This document shows, piece by piece, positions 1-51,750 of a DNA stretch of 64,000 nucleotides. Source of the DNA: Eledone cirrhosa (lineage: Eukaryota); contig OZ024744.1 in NCBI GenBank assembly GCA_964016885.1, positions 71,114,001 through 71,178,000 of the forward strand, read 5' to 3'. The notes beneath the pieces were generated by a model. The model searched no databases. It was not told the DNA's origin and worked only from the letters and a program-made list of their open reading frames with translations. The position numbers and the translations under genes are program-made. Each line of letters begins with the position of its first letter. Position 1 is the stretch's first letter.

Positions 1-415
1 GTGCATGTATGTATGTATATACATACTGCTGTACGTCTGTATACATATATGAATGTACGTATACATACTTATATTTAAGTATCAGCCGTACTAAGAGTGA
101 GAAATGAAATTTCATTTTTTCCATTTATCATTTTCGGCACGCCCGGCCGACTAACTCACTCGCTCGATATGCAAATTGGGTTGTTCAGCCGTTAATATGC
201 ATAAGGAGGTTATATACTTTCAAACGTTCAATCGATTGACAAGAAGGTATACGGTGCTGATGACAGCTAATAAGCTAGAAACTAGTTCATCGTTCCTTTG
301 TCAGTGTTGAACAAAAGGGCACCAATGGTTGCCAAACACTGTACGGCTTAATTCGGGCTGTTTGTTTACAAACAAACCGAACATTATAATAAATGTTCGG
401 TAAACCCATACGTAC
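1..415 (+). mobile_element. Non-coding HHR-bearing repeat, family A (PLE pLTR/retrozyme-like)
   Basis: Homologous to 28357-28926 (+) and ~45395-45730 (-). The head segment recurs at ~1135-1205. Contains a hammerhead fold. Confidence 0.7.
252..292 (+). ncRNA. Minimal type I hammerhead ribozyme (family A)
   Basis: cggtg-CTGATGA-c agct aata agct a-GAAAC TA GTT-catcg. Stem I cggtg/catcg, stem II agct/agct, palindromic stem III ACTAGT. Confidence 0.75.
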
Positions 416-1127
416 ATATATATATGTAGCGAAATCTGTCCGCGCCTTGAACTTTGGGTGATACCTAAAGGTTAAATTTTAGATCACCACATTTATTGTG
501 TTAACAAGTTCAGGTCGGGGGGTATGAAGTGACAGCTGTATACAGACCATGTACAAGCCATTCCACACAGAGACATCGAAGCGATAGGATATACAACTAA
601 CTATGTAAGGATTACTGCTATTAACAGACCCCTTTGGTCTACCAACAGACCCCATTAAGTCTACAGATACACACACAGAGATTGGAACCTGTATGCAGTT
701 GACGGTATTTCTCAGTTACTGCAAACCTTTCAGAGCTATACATACCATACTCTCTAACTAACACGGTCTAACAACTATTACCACGAATACCAACAACAAC
801 AACAATTATCTGTAACTCGCTGTTTTAACACCAACAACAACAACAGACTACAACAGCCTCACATCAGAAACGATAACAACTTTAACAACCATTGGTAACT
901 GTTTTTATATGTACTTATTAAATGATTCACGTGAAGTAAACTATATATAACCAAATCCTATATTCCTTATATTCTTTATATTCACGTTATTATTCCTTAT
1001 ATTATATTCATGTTATCTCTTCCAACAACATTGTTATTGTCATAACAACTAAATAACCAACATTTCTATTCTATACATATTACCATATAAACATTCTAAA
1101 TTTTCGTTTATACCTTTCGTTAAATAT

Positions 1128-1660
1128 ATGTATATCTATGTATGTATATACATACTGCTGTACGTCTGTATACATATATATATATGTAGGTATACATACT
1201 TATATTTATATATATATATATGTATATATATACATATACGTATATATATATACATACATGTATATATATACATCATGTGTATATATATACATGTATGTAT
1301 ATATATATGCATGTATATATATACATATATATATATATACATATATATATACATATATATATATATATATACATATATATATATATATATATATATATAT
1401 ATATATACATATATATACATATATGTATATATATATATACACACACACACACACATATATATATATATATATATATATATATATATATATATATATATAT
1501 ATATATATATATATACATGTATATATATATATACATACAAGTATATGTATATATATACATACATGTATATATATATATATATATACATACAAGTATATGT
1601 ATATATATACATACATGTATATATATATATATATATATATATATATATATATATATATAT
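1128..1660. repeat. (TA)n/(TACA)n microsatellite
   Basis: Direct inspection; source of the spurious Y/I ORFs. Confidence 0.95.
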
Positions 1661-1894
1661 TACCTACCTAGCTGTGTGCTTGCGCACTTTTACAAATTAT
1701 CCCCTGTGATTGTTTCATATGTTTATTTATATGTTAATCAATTTCTAGTTGTTATATATATATATATATATATATATATATATATATATATATATATATA
1801 TATATGTGTGTGTGTGTGTGTGTGTGTGTGTGTGTGTATAGTGAAAGAATGAAGAGTAACATGGTTAGCTGTACAATAAGGGGCTTTATTTAAA

Positions 1895-2005
1895 GTACTG
1901 ACAATTGTTTCGTTGATCAGGTGAGTCTAGAGTTCGCTAATCACTTGAAGTTGCGTCACTCAATCTGCAATACATTATTTACCTCTGGTCAACACATCAG
2001 AGTAC
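1895..2005 (-). ncRNA. Hammerhead-like fold, family B (expanded stem II, A9U core variant)
   Basis: gtact-CTGATGT-gttgaccag...ctgatcaac-GAAAC AATT GTC-agtac. Palindromic stem III ACAATTGT. Confidence 0.6.
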
Positions 2006-2632
2006 GTAGATATAAAAATAATTCAATCGAGAACTGAACCACCTAGATTTTAACATATAGAATACACACCATCTTACTGCTATTAGCTGTCAAACGGTCA
2101 ACTGGTCACTGGATCATAAATCTATGAACATCTCTTTCACCCTCTCTCCCAGAAACAGCATCAGCCCCATTAAGATAGAACAATCAGCAAAACATTTACA
2201 ACAAGCGTTTGTCAAACGTTCATTCACCCCTAGCCTGTAAATCTCATACATGTATCCCCCAATTAATCTCTAATTTATTGTTTTTTCTTTTATCTGTCAC
2301 TACTTCAGACCCTCTACACGTATCTATGTACATCTCGAATCTGGTTTTACATGTTAGCACTAAACCCACCAAGGAATACTTATAAGAACACTTACTCAAA
2401 ACTACTACAAACATACTATGTACTTACATGCTCTCACTTATCCTTATCCTTATTTATTTATTTATATTTTCCATTTTCTCTTTTTTAATGTACCCTATCT
2501 TATCTTTTACTTTTTACATCTGTAACTTCTCTACCTATTTACCATATATGTTTTATTATTGATGTTATTGTTTTGATTATACGCTATTTTTCTATATAGG
2601 TCTTGCTTCGAGTGAATTATTTTTATATCTAC

Positions 2633-49075: not shown

Positions 49076-50885
49076 TGCTAGTAACTACAGACTGTCCTAC
49101 TTCCTCTCCCTGATCATACGCCCCATCATTGAGATGTCCCCAGATGTGTGTGACAGCACGGAGGACCTCCTCAGCAGAATCGGCGCGGGTAACCGATCTG
49201 GGGACCTAACAAACTGCATAATAGGCAGTATGGATGTTGTGTCCCTGTATCCATCTATTGACGTGGATTTTGCTGTGGAGAAATGCGTCGAAATGATCAG
49301 CGAGACCAAGGTTGAGTTCCGTGGGATTGATACCAGTGAGCTGGGACTTCTACTTAAGCTTACCCATAGTAATAGTTACCTAGACACTTATGACCTTAGC
49401 AACCTGTGCCCTACAAGACCAGCAAGAGGCAGACCACCTACCATTACCTCAATGGCCAAGAAAACCCACACAGATAGATGGAACGGGTGGACCAGAGCCA
49501 TACGGACACCCGAAAACCACGATGAACTGAAGAAAATGATTGCACATGCGGTAGGGGCCAGCATAAAATTAACCCTTAAGGAACATATGTTCAAATTTAA
49601 TGGTAAAACATATGCTCAAGAGGAAGGAGCAGCCATTGGTGTTAGCATTGCAGGCGACATAGCTAACTTATTTATGGTATGGTGGGACAGTAGACTTAAA
49701 CAAAAACTTAATGAACAATTAGAAGACAGCTTAACCCTGATAATGTACTCCCGCTACGTAGATGATATAAACATCGTAGTTAAGACACCCCCACTAAAGA
49801 ACAGTCAGGAACTAGAGAAAAACACAATGGAAAGCATCCAGCAAATAGCAAACTCCATCCACCAGAGCATTAGAGTTACTATAGACTACCCAAGTAGACA
49901 CCCCAACCATCGATTACCTGTACTAGACACAGAGCTCTGGTTAGATACTATTAACAACCAAAAACAAATCCTCCATTCCCATTATGCCAAACCCATGACT
50001 TCCAAACATCTGATCCACCGAAACTCGGCCATTTCGGACCATACCAAAATCAACATACTGATTGCGGATTTGGTACGGGTGATGAGAAATGTGTCCCGCA
50101 TGTGCAACCCCGAAGAACTAGAGAGACACATACAACACTTCATCCACCGTATGCAGTTCTCTGGCTACAATCAGAGAGATAGAATCAGAGTGTATAAAGG
50201 AGCCAGAACCAAATGGGAAAAAATGGTAAATAATGACATAAATGGGACCTGCCCCTTGTATAGGAGCAAATTTTGGAATAGAATAGAAAGAACTAAGAAC
50301 AAGGCCAATAGAATAAACTCATGGTATGATAGCAATAAATACCAGAGTGTAATGTTCATCAATACAACCCCTAGAGGCGAACTAGCCTACAAATTTAGAA
50401 GGACCCTAAAGAAACATAATCTCAATATTAAGATAGTAGAAAGACCTGGTACCTCCGTAAAAACACTTATTAGCAAGACATACCCGTTCCAAAGACCCTC
50501 ATGTATAGATAAGAAATGTATAACCTGTAAAATAAGCCCCCATATTAACTGTAAAACTAGAAATGTAGTATATAGCATAAGATGTACTGAAGGACAATGT
50601 AGAAACAAAAATATAGTGTACATAGGTGAGACAGCTCGTAGTATAGGGGAACGAATAAATGAACACTGGCGAGACCTCCAAGATAGTAAAGAATCATCTG
50701 TGCTCTACCAACATGCTAAGATAGAACACAGGGGTAAATTAGAGAGCATAGAAATAAAAATAGAATCCACACACAAGAAAGACGCAATGTTTAGGCAAAT
50801 TACAGAGGCAGTAAGCATAAAAGAATTAAAACCAAAATTAAATAGAAAATATGAGTGGAACAGCAACATCACAACTTACAATTAA
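48990..50885 (+). CDS. PLE reverse transcriptase + GIY-YIG endonuclease (5'-truncated, uninterrupted 631 aa)
   Basis: Same motifs. Differs from the mirror ORF at about 4 residues outside the junction. Confidence 0.85.
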   Translation: MLAPQNGRVGGPATGSQGPPTRPVCGANIASNYRLSYFLSLIIRPIIEMSPDVCDSTEDLLSRIGAGNRSGDLTNCIIGSMDVVSLYPSIDVDFAVEKCVEMISETKVEFRGIDTSELGLLLKLTHSNSYLDTYDLSNLCPTRPARGRPPTITSMAKKTHTDRWNGWTRAIRTPENHDELKKMIAHAVGASIKLTLKEHMFKFNGKTYAQEEGAAIGVSIAGDIANLFMVWWDSRLKQKLNEQLEDSLTLIMYSRYVDDINIVVKTPPLKNSQELEKNTMESIQQIANSIHQSIRVTIDYPSRHPNHRLPVLDTELWLDTINNQKQILHSHYAKPMTSKHLIHRNSAISDHTKINILIADLVRVMRNVSRMCNPEELERHIQHFIHRMQFSGYNQRDRIRVYKGARTKWEKMVNNDINGTCPLYRSKFWNRIERTKNKANRINSWYDSNKYQSVMFINTTPRGELAYKFRRTLKKHNLNIKIVERPGTSVKTLISKTYPFQRPSCIDKKCITCKISPHINCKTRNVVYSIRCTEGQCRNKNIVYIGETARSIGERINEHWRDLQDSKESSVLYQHAKIEHRGKLESIEIKIESTHKKDAMFRQITEAVSIKELKPKLNRKYEWNSNITTYN

Positions 50886-51188
50886 GGACAAAATGAAAAC
50901 ACACACACACATAGAACAAACAACTTACAATTGAAAACACACACAAAATGAAAACACACACAAGACAAAATGAAAACACACACACATAGAACAAACAACC
51001 AACCAACAATAAATAAATAAATAAACAAACAAATAGAAAAATATAAATAGAAAAATAGAAAAATGAACACAAACACACACAGACACCCGGATGTGGCGCA
51101 TGCGCAAACTGAGCACGCAACCCACACACAAACAAAATGGCGTAGGATAGAAGAAAGGAAAGGCACAGAAACGAAGAAAGAAATCCCC

Positions 51189-51233
51189 AGTCACTGAAGA
51201 GGTCACAGAGTGTGTGACGAAAGAACTATGACT
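51189..51233 (+). ncRNA. Type I hammerhead in the PLE pLTR (family K), right arm
   Basis: agtca-CTGAAGA-g gtcaca gagtg tgtgac-GAAAG AA CTA-tgact, about 300 nt after the stop codon. Confidence 0.75.
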
Positions 51234-51683
51234 ATATATATATAAACAACTATCTGGTTGTGGAACCAACCAACCAACCAGAAATTTATAAATATATAAT
51301 AAATTAAATTGAAGTGAAAGCAACTGGTGCGTGTGTTTCTTATTGGCAACATGACCCTCCCAAAGTATAATAACATATATATATACATATACATATATAT
51401 ACATATATATACAATATATATTTATATATACATATATATATATATATATACATATTTATATATAAATACATATATATATATATACATACATATATATATA
51501 TATACATATATATATATATATACATATGTATATACATATATATATACATATATAAACATATATATATACATATATATATACATATATATACATACATATA
51601 CATACATATATATATATACACATATATACATATATATATATACAAAATATAAGATCAAAAGATGGTTAAAGGAGTTCCATATA

Positions 51684-51750
51684 TTTTATTATGCGCATTT
51701 CAAAAACAAACATCATCAAGCAATAATATTTGTGTTTTCATCAGATAAAA
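51684..51750 (-). ncRNA. Type I hammerhead ribozyme (family C), in a module spanning ~51645-52330
   Basis: Homologous to 3393-3459. The module also has a ~200-bp tandem duplication (~51840-52270). Confidence 0.7.

Follow-up and report, generated by a model that had tools for sequence, protein, structure and literature searches.

Hammerhead folds and their loci

A sequence-only reading of the window (the whole 64-kb stretch of DNA analysed) had put forward 19 sites as a minimum of 19 folds, and every one of them holds a hammerhead of type I, either intact or decayed but still recognisable. The sites fall into 11 families (A to K) and lie in the following features, some of them derived from Penelope-like elements (PLEs).

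64..412, + strand: family A retrozyme, older subfamily, one partial unit; hammerhead 251-293
1838..3014, both strands: family B two-armed insertion, 3′ end of a Hydra-type PLE
1838-2031, - strand: family B short-end arm; hammerhead 1895-2008, A9U, long stem II
2030-3014, + strand: family B long-end arm; damaged hammerhead 2633-2800
3330..3499, + strand: family C solo pseudo-LTR stub; hammerhead 3391-3461; its 5′ end is the family's modal site, 126 nt upstream of the cleavage site
25297..25682, + strand: family D (Hydra-type PLE) 3′ end, diverged subfamily; hammerhead 25621-25671; TATA box 74 nt upstream of the cleavage site
26208..26647: family E two-armed stub; hammerheads 26256-26327 (-) and 26433-26504 (+)
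28389..28926, + strand: family A retrozyme, one full ~470-nt unit and read-on to the long end; hammerhead 28580-28622
28953..29767: family F two-armed retrozyme, unit ~500 nt; hammerhead 29509-29591 (+), family-fixed U4A, 10-bp stem III
29796..30233: family G two-armed retrozyme, unit ~320 nt; hammerhead 29924-29971 (-)
30784..31236: family H retrozyme, unit ~330 nt, short inverted arm; hammerhead 31087-31132 (+)
37213..37940, - strand: family I closed non-coding 631-nt unit with a 96-nt overlap; hammerhead 37457-37535, U16.1C in this copy
38361..38557: family D minimal two-armed stub, both arms starting at the modal 5′ site; hammerheads 38444-38496 (-) and 38497-38549 (+)
38775..39038, + strand: family J (Hydra-type PLE) 3′ end; hammerhead 38881-38940; its upstream portion is probably at about 36965-37200, separated by nested insertions
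45383..45722, - strand: family A retrozyme, partial unit reaching the long end; hammerhead 45654-45694
46630..51376: family K (Neptune-like PLE) 4.7-kb two-armed insertion, 99.4% identity between arms; hammerheads 46830-46873 (-) and 51189-51232 (+)
48981..50885, + strand: family K 5′-truncated ORF, RT and C-terminal GIY-YIG (RVT_1 and GIY-YIG, E 1.6e-4 each, both below curated cut-offs); mirror copy 47180-49084 (-)
51639..52340, - strand: family C 3′ end with ~700 nt of 3′ UTR; hammerhead 51682-51752

A strict descriptor returned 10 sites in the window, against 0.07±0.25 (maximum 1) in 60 block-wise dinucleotide shuffles. Relaxing the descriptor gave 14 sites with a canonical core (0.15 in 20 shuffles) and 16 when one core change was permitted (0.25 in shuffles), and over the window it added none to the 19 already listed. 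The three sites that it missed are damaged copies of confirmed families: site 2633 has A6G and an insertion of ~55 nt in stem II, site 37457 has U16.1C, and stem III is weakened at site 38444. The canonical CUGANGA / GAAA / UH core, with three helices and an open stem I, was present at 15 of the 19 sites. The other four deviate, as had been reported; two of these changes are family-wide (A9U in 20/21 copies of family B and U4A in 20/21 copies of family F) and two are private decay. Rfam gave no match anywhere in the window at the gathering threshold, two E-value scans of three of the sites lacked a hammerhead, and a full-window E-value scan had none among the best 150 of 531 matches. Single-strand MFE folding recovered the three-helix shape at only some sites.

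Each of the 11 families is a true repeat family, for which a first look gave between 60 and 3,365 candidates. They had been called unrelated, which proved too strong: a single architecture accommodates the hammerheads of A, H and other retrozymes in one alignment, and E resembles, at 71-79%, further families whose stem I/III pattern is that of C. The palindromic stem III that had been noticed is indeed present in many families. Minor alleles common to copies occurred at 2 of 121 core sites and 132 of 850 other sites (p=2e-6). The suspected compensatory pairing was also borne out, with double changes in 11 of 12 stem pairs among 10 related hammerheads and in 0/500 shuffles, although the hammerheads in the two alignments, A1 and A2, had been selected by hand among the descriptor hits, which makes the test partly circular. 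Judged from their sequences, the hammerhead cores are conserved and the stems covary across copies, and the self-cutting-RNA motifs of the window are genuine as hammerhead folds.

The density of folds, to which the sequence-only reading drew attention, is ordinary for this genome, and the window is no hotspot. A 1.0-Mb genome sample contained 79 strict motifs per Mb, and hammerheads were spaced at about 1 per 10-13 kb across the sampled parts of the genome. When 64-kb stretches were drawn from the sample, 7-13% reached the window's count. Extrapolation from the 1.0-Mb sample would imply a genome-wide total of ~2.4×10^5 hammerheads (range about 2-3×10^5).

Hammerheads at the ends of Penelope-like elements

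Because the ORF lies at a fixed spacing in families B, C and K and copies of D, B and J read through into an ORF, 10 of the 19 sites (families B, C, D, J and K) are attributed to autonomous elements. On this linkage, which upholds the Penelope connection proposed earlier, these sites are pseudo-LTR ends of ORF-bearing PLEs, and the window copies are 5′-truncated or solo pseudo-LTR derivatives. The ORF end precedes the hammerhead on the same strand by ~204 nt in family K (PLE match upstream in 26/51 copies), by 578-685 nt in B (6/26) and by 984-1013 nt in C (7/46). In D, B and J the long end runs directly into a Hydra-type ORF with no microsatellite between, in one tandem copy each; the copies of D and J cover the RT end only. 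No PLE match was found upstream of the hammerhead in G (0/27), H (0/32) or I (0/19), and families A and F showed no constant distance to an upstream PLE match. The two family E sites are probably PLE pseudo-LTRs too; copies share at least 1.2 kb of non-coding upstream sequence, with no ORF within reach.

Motifs and similarity point to the Hydra clade for B, C, D and J. Both B and C have the Hydra-type linker CxCX5C; C also has the CxxC and CxH that in this clade surround the conserved E and N, D has RWR and DKT, and J is assigned solely by its similarity to a Hydra-type N-terminus. Family K appears Neptune-like: its ORF in the window has a CX4CxxC linker ahead of the C-terminal GIY-YIG, which fits Neptune, although this motif does not distinguish Neptune from Nematis. 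As expected of EN+ PLEs, 5′ truncation, an inverted arm and a tail at one end were all present. The Naiad clade, with its N-terminal endonuclease and without a canonical hammerhead, was rejected on the C-terminal endonuclease motifs of B, C and K.

Non-coding retrozymes

Seven of the 19 sites (families A, F, G, H and I) are, on sequence grounds, closed non-coding retrozyme units of 320-630 nt. A diverse non-autonomous population, as first proposed, is thus found in these five families but not at the 10 sites from autonomous PLEs, nor probably at the two of family E. Tandem non-coding units with one type I hammerhead each, which define non-LTR retrozymes, were found in A, F, G and H. No locus among 20 of family I had two hammerheads, as consecutive units would; this family works like a retrozyme in its closed 631-nt unit and more-than-unit copies. 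Retrozyme monomers are predicted to form stable circles (z of the circular MFE -4.1 to -9.5, from 25 shuffles per monomer; for A, a microsatellite within the unit may make the score too strong). A search of about 2 Mb turned up no autonomous donor that resembles any of the retrozyme units in sequence. Families F and I have a start-site hairpin in common with C, D, J and B, and likely borrow Hydra-type enzymes.

Rare alleles that were array-wide in retrozymes showed 20 A>G against 7 T>C changes (p=0.005), a result from 27 events that is one among several tests and weak outside family A. There was no A>G excess among unit-specific rare alleles in the arrays (53 vs 51) or in the PLE families (4 vs 6). 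The A>G changes common to all units of an array give a modest hint of a circular template. Arms of the same insertion diverged less than arms of different insertions in A (0.75% vs 3.8%) and F (2.4% vs 5.2%); this same-template signal was partial in G (6.7% vs 11.5%) and absent in H (5.0% vs 4.9%). Two arrays, L024 and L027, have several non-fixed alleles in common, which fits a multimeric template or duplication.

A common insertion footprint

Coding PLE ends and retrozymes alike have fixed 3′ end sites, and 528 of 564 termini adjoined a microsatellite, mostly (TA)n, in agreement with the (TA)n targeting suggested before. Two distinct 3′ ends, short and long, occurred in 10 of 11 families; family I has one, with an inverted arm in 1/20 loci. 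Of 149 inverted insertions, 146 carry a short end on one arm and a long end on the other (retrozymes 45/47, B/C/K 50/51, D/E/J 51/51). The short and long bins were drawn by eye, ends that fell outside them were not counted, and the 20 loci of the D search had been chosen for having both arms. The longer arm of B/C/K pairs was the long-end arm in 14 and the short-end arm in 18, with 17 equal and 1 unclear, and several long-end arms contain less than the tail.

The 5′ ends are variable, and among incidental copies 1 of 168 lay at the cleavage site. An inactive ribozyme would equally be expected to leave few 5′ ends there. Copies of D began at -39 to -47 in 21 of 32 cases, 30 nt behind a TATA box, and copies of C at -126 to -129 in 9 of 21; both pile-ups likely mark transcription starts. 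The G that precedes the D start in 12 of 14 copies could reflect junction slippage instead of a cap. Stub 5′ ends have no TATA box, which lies upstream in longer copies, and stub junctions differ from copy to copy.

Proposed mechanism and alternatives

We think it probable that there are two carriers, PLE ends and tandem retrozymes, and that both are written into (TA)n by a Penelope RT-endonuclease from two fixed RNA start sites. The enzyme would prime one cDNA per target strand from these sites, and the common two-ended footprint makes it likely that the same enzymes copy coding PLEs and non-coding repeats. Transcription of autonomous families would begin inside the pseudo-LTR, 45-126 nt ahead of the cleavage site, with proposed capped starts at -45 in D, -126 in C and -120 in E. 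If the enzyme primed at the pair of start sites closest to the 5′ end of the RNA, it would copy the uncut leader only, which would account for the many short stubs; longer copies with the ORF would come from priming at the distal pair. For retrozymes, we lean slightly towards a multimer cut by dimer-competent hammerheads, with monomers ligated into circles and copied round in trans into both arms. Retrozyme circles have already been published (PMC7229834), and the Poseidon_Ac RT initiates internally at two sites in vitro (PMC11167929).

It is improbable that nearly all modules are independent non-autonomous retro-modules mobilised in trans, as the sequence-only reading held for most of them. 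That account holds for A, F, G, H and I, and every family is dominated by short copies without an ORF, E being ambiguous; however, fixed ORF-to-hammerhead spacing in B, C and K and read-through in D, B and J refute it for these five families. As independent modules, moreover, the stubs would be dead on arrival because their 5′ ends have no upstream TATA box. We attach practically no weight to chance folds in AT-rich repeats or to palindromes as assembly artefacts. Rfam detects no fold and the 4.7-kb palindrome is 99.4% identical, but the shuffle counts of 0-1, the covariation and the unequal, family-specific arm ends in 146/149 pairs already refute both.

Retrozyme arrays might also arise from linear uncut multimers or in-place expansion, circle-free and with the hammerhead as a passenger, a possibility that we take seriously while doubting it. 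The cleavage sites show no 5′ pile-up, cleavage is dispensable for the Poseidon element in vitro (PMC11167929), 8/9 Xenopus dimers failed to cleave (bioRxiv 10.64898/2026.07.22.740005), family F spread despite its fixed U4A core, L024 and L027 have non-fixed alleles in common, and arrays of at least 19 units may reflect growth in place. Against this, core conservation far exceeds that of the flanks, monomers are predicted to fold as stable circles, and the A>G excess is seen only in alleles that are fixed throughout an insertion, a pattern that requires a bottleneck of one monomer. The inverted arm could stem from fold-back or self-priming on the first cDNA or an antisense template, without a second RNA-primed event (self-priming has been proposed earlier, PMC3846280); we consider this quite unlikely. 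Near-identical arms and frequent near-symmetric pairs (17/50 in B/C/K, 30/31 in D) would suit it, but the short-end arm is longer in 18/50 non-tandem pairs and some long-end arms hold less than the tail, and copying one arm cannot yield both length patterns. Symmetric arms would also result from two RNA-primed cDNAs that both reach the same RNA 5′ end.

A tentative but credible joint reading is that this is the densest hammerhead population among the counts compared (a quarter-million or more, >20 families) and that its insertions record the complete, obligatorily asymmetric Penelope reaction, in which one enzyme dimer and one RNA prime the short and long sites on opposite (TA)n strands, uncut capped leaders giving stubs and ADAR-edited retrozyme circles giving multi-unit arms. 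If so, one could read from DNA that Penelope enzymes mobilise retrozymes and that reverse transcription is rolling-circle, and the natural U4A and A9U cores would be built-in tests of the cleavage requirement. These data bear on which enzyme spreads animal retrozymes and on the role of hammerheads in Penelope elements: the two-start-site footprint common to retrozymes and coding elements points to Penelope enzymes on mechanistic grounds, beyond co-occurrence. Exact in vitro substrates are offered by the start sites mapped here, by the likely transcription starts and by the core variants fixed within families. The census also indicates that much unannotated spacer in the genome is ribozyme-bearing retroelement debris invisible to Rfam.

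Comparison with known systems

Penelope hammerheads, retrozymes and (TA)n targeting are already published, and the impression that the population is under-described is right for its scale and end rule but not for the kind of system (PMC4209133, PMC7229834, PMC8557442, bioRxiv 10.64898/2026.07.22.740005). Like the PLE pseudo-LTR hammerheads of Cervera and de la Peña 2014 (PMC4209133), those here are type I with a tiny palindromic stem III and many families per genome, sometimes with an extra nucleotide after A9 (here family K), and are mainly single motifs from truncated copies, with opposite-strand pairs 100-700 bp apart. That paper counted 2,000-9,000 motifs per genome, compared with ~2.4×10^5 here, although descriptors differ and our figure is extrapolated; family-fixed U4A and A9U cores are not described in its excerpted text.

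The Hydra-clade PLEs of Craig et al. 2021 (PMC8557442), which include Hydra-1_Obim, likewise have a C-terminal endonuclease, RW(K/R), DKT, the CxCX5C linker, CxxC and CxH, canonical hammerheads, (TA)n insertion, an inverted 5′-truncated arm and a tail at one end. That paper describes few Hydra families, with a tail of 30-40 bp, whereas we found at least four lineages (B, C, D and J), tails of ~65-160 nt and a near-strict pairing of one short with one long end. Non-autonomous Chlamys elements such as MRC1 (PMC8557442) are also non-coding PLE parasites with multicopy head-to-tail insertions, but they are green algal and mostly hammerhead-free, and their 3′ end is similar to that of the autonomous partner.

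Metazoan non-LTR retrozymes (Cervera and de la Peña 2020, PMC7229834; Li, Clavereau and Pollet 2026, bioRxiv 10.64898/2026.07.22.740005) resemble ours in their non-coding head-to-tail units with one type I hammerhead each, GC <50%, a stable predicted circle and PLEs alongside. Our units of 320-630 nt lie partly beyond their 170-400 nt range, and the highest count in those papers is 126,247, in axolotl. Two-armed retrozyme insertions with a PLE tail are not described in the excerpts of either paper. Their case for PLE mobilisation rests on co-occurrence and pseudo-LTR homology; ours rests on the insertion footprint, donor pseudo-LTR homology not having been found in about 2 Mb.

Poseidon_Ac in vitro (Frangieh et al. 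2024, PMC11167929) also starts RT internally at two sites, one on either side of the tail, cuts and extends the two strands of an AT-rich target, and uses uncut RNA as template. For Poseidon_Ac no difference in start site between strands was reported, whereas the two arms here use different sites in 146 of 149 pairs.

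Hammerheads in the window

A strict type I descriptor recovered 10 of the 19 hammerhead sites proposed for the window, compared with 0.07 ± 0.25 in 60 shuffles. A relaxed descriptor detected 14 canonical sites (0.15 in 20 shuffles), rising to 16 when one core change was permitted (0.25 in 20 shuffles), and no site outside the 19 of the sequence-only reading. The other three (2633, 37457 and 38444) are damaged copies of families with intact members elsewhere. The observation was confirmed, with every one of the 19 sites holding a hammerhead fold or a damaged copy of one. Targeted Rfam scans of three sites and a gathering-threshold scan of the window returned no hammerhead; the best 150 of 531 matches in a full-window E-value scan were dominated by microsatellite matches to miRNA models.

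The 19 sites fall into 11 families (A to K). With 20–45 copies per family, shared minor alleles occurred at 2 of 121 core sites versus 132 of 850 sites outside the core; divergence per cell was 1.4% and 6.6%, respectively. Ten hand-picked related hammerheads had double changes in 11 of 12 stem pairs, a count equalled in none of 500 shuffles, and five F-type hammerheads had them in 3 of 12 pairs. Covariation and core conservation both favored the proposed folds.

Two families carry a core substitution in nearly every copy: A9U in 20 of 21 copies of B and U4A in 20 of 21 copies of F. Relatives of both have canonical cores. Lünse et al. reportedly described hammerhead variants in Penelope-like elements (PLEs), and U4A or A9U may be among them. 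Family F belongs with a superfamily of closed non-coding units (L062, L156, L247, L250 and L119), and the canonical core is retained in the four aligned members, indicating that U4A arose in one successful branch. Of other core changes, U4C is tolerated and A6C is slow, according to PMC3088659. B-like hammerheads with a very long stem II (60–100 nt), from several families, were seen at L121:3267-3397, L174:2985-3115, L341:7413-7547 and L245:761-854.

Coding PLE ends and non-coding retrozymes

Each family served as a query against the genome, and its 20–30 best loci were analyzed. All families had a sharp 3′ boundary just behind the hammerhead and ragged 5′ ends. A same-strand Penelope-type open reading frame (ORF) ended ∼204 nt before the hammerhead in K, 578–685 nt in B and 984–1013 nt in C. 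In D (L355), B (L316) and J (L197), the longer of two 3′ ends continued without a microsatellite into an ORF start in one tandem copy each, which is the pseudo-LTR arrangement. The Hydra-clade motifs given in section 11 of PMC8557442 were present in B, C and D; the clade is published as targeting (TA)n, bearing hammerheads and occurring in Octopus. The K ORF has a Neptune-type linker. Family E copies share at least 1.2 kb of non-coding sequence upstream, with no ORF reached within the 1.0-Mb sample. A protein search with the C ORF returned 98 relatives, mostly without informative names; the one informatively named was from Octopus, in line with a host that is probably a cephalopod. A 919-codon ORF upstream of a D copy was rejected as the D ORF, being an unrelated LINE-type reverse transcriptase (RT).

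Families A, F, G and H are organized as head-to-tail units with medians of 466 nt (n = 115 intervals), 499 nt (n = 4), 320 nt (n = 2) and 328 nt (n = 4), respectively, and A arrays reach at least 19 units. Family I is a closed 631-nt unit with only 1–1.3 copies per locus. For these five families, we found no linked ORF in the genomic loci examined and no autonomous donor in ∼2 Mb searched. The window thus holds 10 PLE sites, 2 probable PLE sites and 7 retrozyme-type sites. The sequence-only reading had interpreted much of the spacer DNA as non-autonomous modules bearing these folds; that interpretation was partly supported, fitting the seven sites of A, F, G, H and I but not the ten that are ORF-linked PLE ends.

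The window as a whole is a mosaic of (TA)n tracts and transposon remains, with a microsatellite fraction of 14.6% versus 9.0% in the genome sample. Repeats were detected by masked self-BLAST because (TA)n overwhelmed the repeat finder.

Other elements in the window
4028-5149, minus strand: PIF1 helicase ORF fragment, Helitron-like
8692-12903, minus strand: LTR-retrotransposon remnant with broken frames; RNase H and integrase matches
13436-17650, plus strand: LTR-retrotransposon remnant with broken frames; terminal repeats 88.6% identical
18399-19180: part of the long upstream region, rich in microsatellites, that D copies have in common; no attached hammerhead
26776-26941 and 38244-38296: a further module lying in (TA)n and carrying a GC-rich inverted repeat; also common beside other loci
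31240-31700: decayed Hydra-type PLE fragment (N-terminal and RT), immediately following the H insertion
34122-36809: remnant of a Hydra-type PLE, rearranged, with parts of the RT and the endonuclease and with an inverted arm (34122-34323)
5698-8607, 24576-25245, 27045-28415, 32219-34177, 39161-39998, 54425-57852 and 44487-44957: jointly, LINE fragments, an RT element and a DDE_3 transposase fragment

We take the LINE fragments to be RTE-like, and one RT element presumably has a C-terminal restriction-like domain. The descriptors found no hammerhead in the PLE remnant at 34122-36809. The fragment at 31240-31700 was probably the target of the H insertion; we rejected it as a part of H, since the two are adjacent in one copy only and H is a closed tandem unit elsewhere. 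The module at 26776-26941 and 38244-38296 resembles the tail of yet another family of PLE type, with the hammerhead absent from these copies. At 36965-39038, a J copy apparently hosts I, another element and D, all nested within its internal microsatellite; these elements thus provide targets for one another.

Density across the genome

The genome sample comprised 100 stretches of 10 kb at even spacing (999,400 bases in total), of which 80 came from the four largest chromosomes; unplaced contigs contributed none. The sample contained 79 strict motifs, spread over 35 stretches, with a bootstrap interval of 49–117 per Mb that is wide because the sample is 1.0 Mb. Three rounds of shuffling of the first 80 stretches gave 1, 0 and 0 motifs. 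Extrapolation to the 3.0-Gb genome yields 2.4 × 10^5 strict motifs, or ∼2.2 × 10^5 with size weighting of large and small chromosomes; a single array contributes up to 11 hits to the count. The relaxed descriptor found 109 motifs (4 in the shuffle), corresponding to ∼3.1 × 10^5 genome-wide. The window does not stand out in density: 7–13% of resampled genome draws matched or exceeded its count.

Clustering at 75% identity (sample and window) produced 23 motif clusters; at 88% (all loci) there were 53, 20 of them in at least two loci. Of 87 motifs, 80% had a microsatellite within 200 nt on the 3′ side; for control positions the figure was 21%. The 11-hammerhead array on the minus strand of L276 (from 3343 onward), with 310-nt units, represents a retrozyme family missing from the window; its hammerheads have the same architecture as those of A and H.

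One short and one long 3′ end

Ten of the 11 families have two fixed 3′ ends, ∼15–160 nt apart, and 528 of 564 termini lie within 15 nt of a microsatellite. Inverted insertions whose two ends could both be binned as short or long numbered 149, and 146 of them combined one short with one long end (45/47 for A, F, G and H; 50/51 for B, C and K; 51/51 for D, E and J). Unpaired ends are common too, and I contributes no pair; judging by hairpin positions, its single end is more likely the first site than the long end. Since the longer arm may be either the short-end or the long-end one, and some long-end arms do not reach the length of the tail, two RNA-primed cDNAs are needed. In A and F, both arms derive from one source; G shows this signal in part and H does not show it.

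In C, D and J, a short hairpin (background 0.42 per kb) sits just past the short end; in B it follows the long end, in F both ends and in I the single end, and it is absent from A, G, H and K. Its occurrence in F, I and the Hydra-type families indicates that F and I likely use Hydra-type enzymes. Families A and K, both lacking this hairpin, have nearly equal tails (59 and 57 nt), a weak hint that a K-type enzyme may move A; we found no sequence similarity between the two.

The copied RNA

Rare alleles fixed through all units of a retrozyme insertion were biased on the sense strand (20 A>G versus 7 T>C, p = 0.005), whereas unit-specific ones were symmetric (53 versus 51). PLE families tested likewise showed no excess. 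The restriction of the excess to insertion-wide alleles modestly suggests that one edited monomer was copied over and over, as from a circle, and circular folding of monomers is predicted to be stable. Against a single circular monomer, two A arrays share non-fixed alleles. Two seemingly position-specific alleles in A arrays match the query and are probably an effect of best-hit selection.

Only 1 of 168 incidentally found copies begins at the cleavage site. By contrast, 21 of 32 D copies begin 39–47 nt before it, with a TATA box 30 nt upstream that a diverged D subfamily has also conserved; 9 of 21 C copies begin at −126 to −129, in initiator-like sequence; and 3 of 5 E copies begin at −120, with a TATA box 31 nt upstream. 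A splice acceptor was dropped as the cause of the D start, the TATA box at −30 fitting better. In front of 12 of the 14 D starts at −45 and 5 of the 10 C starts at −126 stands a non-genomic G, which copying of the cap would be expected to leave; slippage at the junction is a possible source of the same G. Given the pile-ups behind promoter elements and the near absence of starts at the cleavage site, the best reading is that these stubs are full copies of a capped leader that was left uncut, primed from the start sites closest to the 5′ end of the RNA.

Comparison with known systems

PLE pseudo-LTR hammerheads, promoters in pseudo-LTRs, dimer-type stem III, retrozyme circles, PLEs as likely retrozyme mobilizers and (TA)n targeting by Hydra elements are all in print. 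Published counts, obtained with other descriptors, are 126,247 for axolotl, >6,000 for a coral, ∼5,000 for a mussel and 9,000 for Xenopus. In the literature searched, we found no publication with the one-short-one-long rule in non-coding retrozymes or the clustering of 5′ ends at a likely cap site, nor one reporting hammerheads on this scale. The system is of an already known sort; its scale is exceptional and its insertion rule clear. This rule makes two questions testable: which enzyme spreads animal retrozymes, and what the hammerhead does for Penelope elements. The footprint matches the known PLE tail and that of Poseidon_Ac (PMC11167929), which has two internal start sites and two-strand extension. 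It goes beyond these in that the two arms of one insertion use different start sites.
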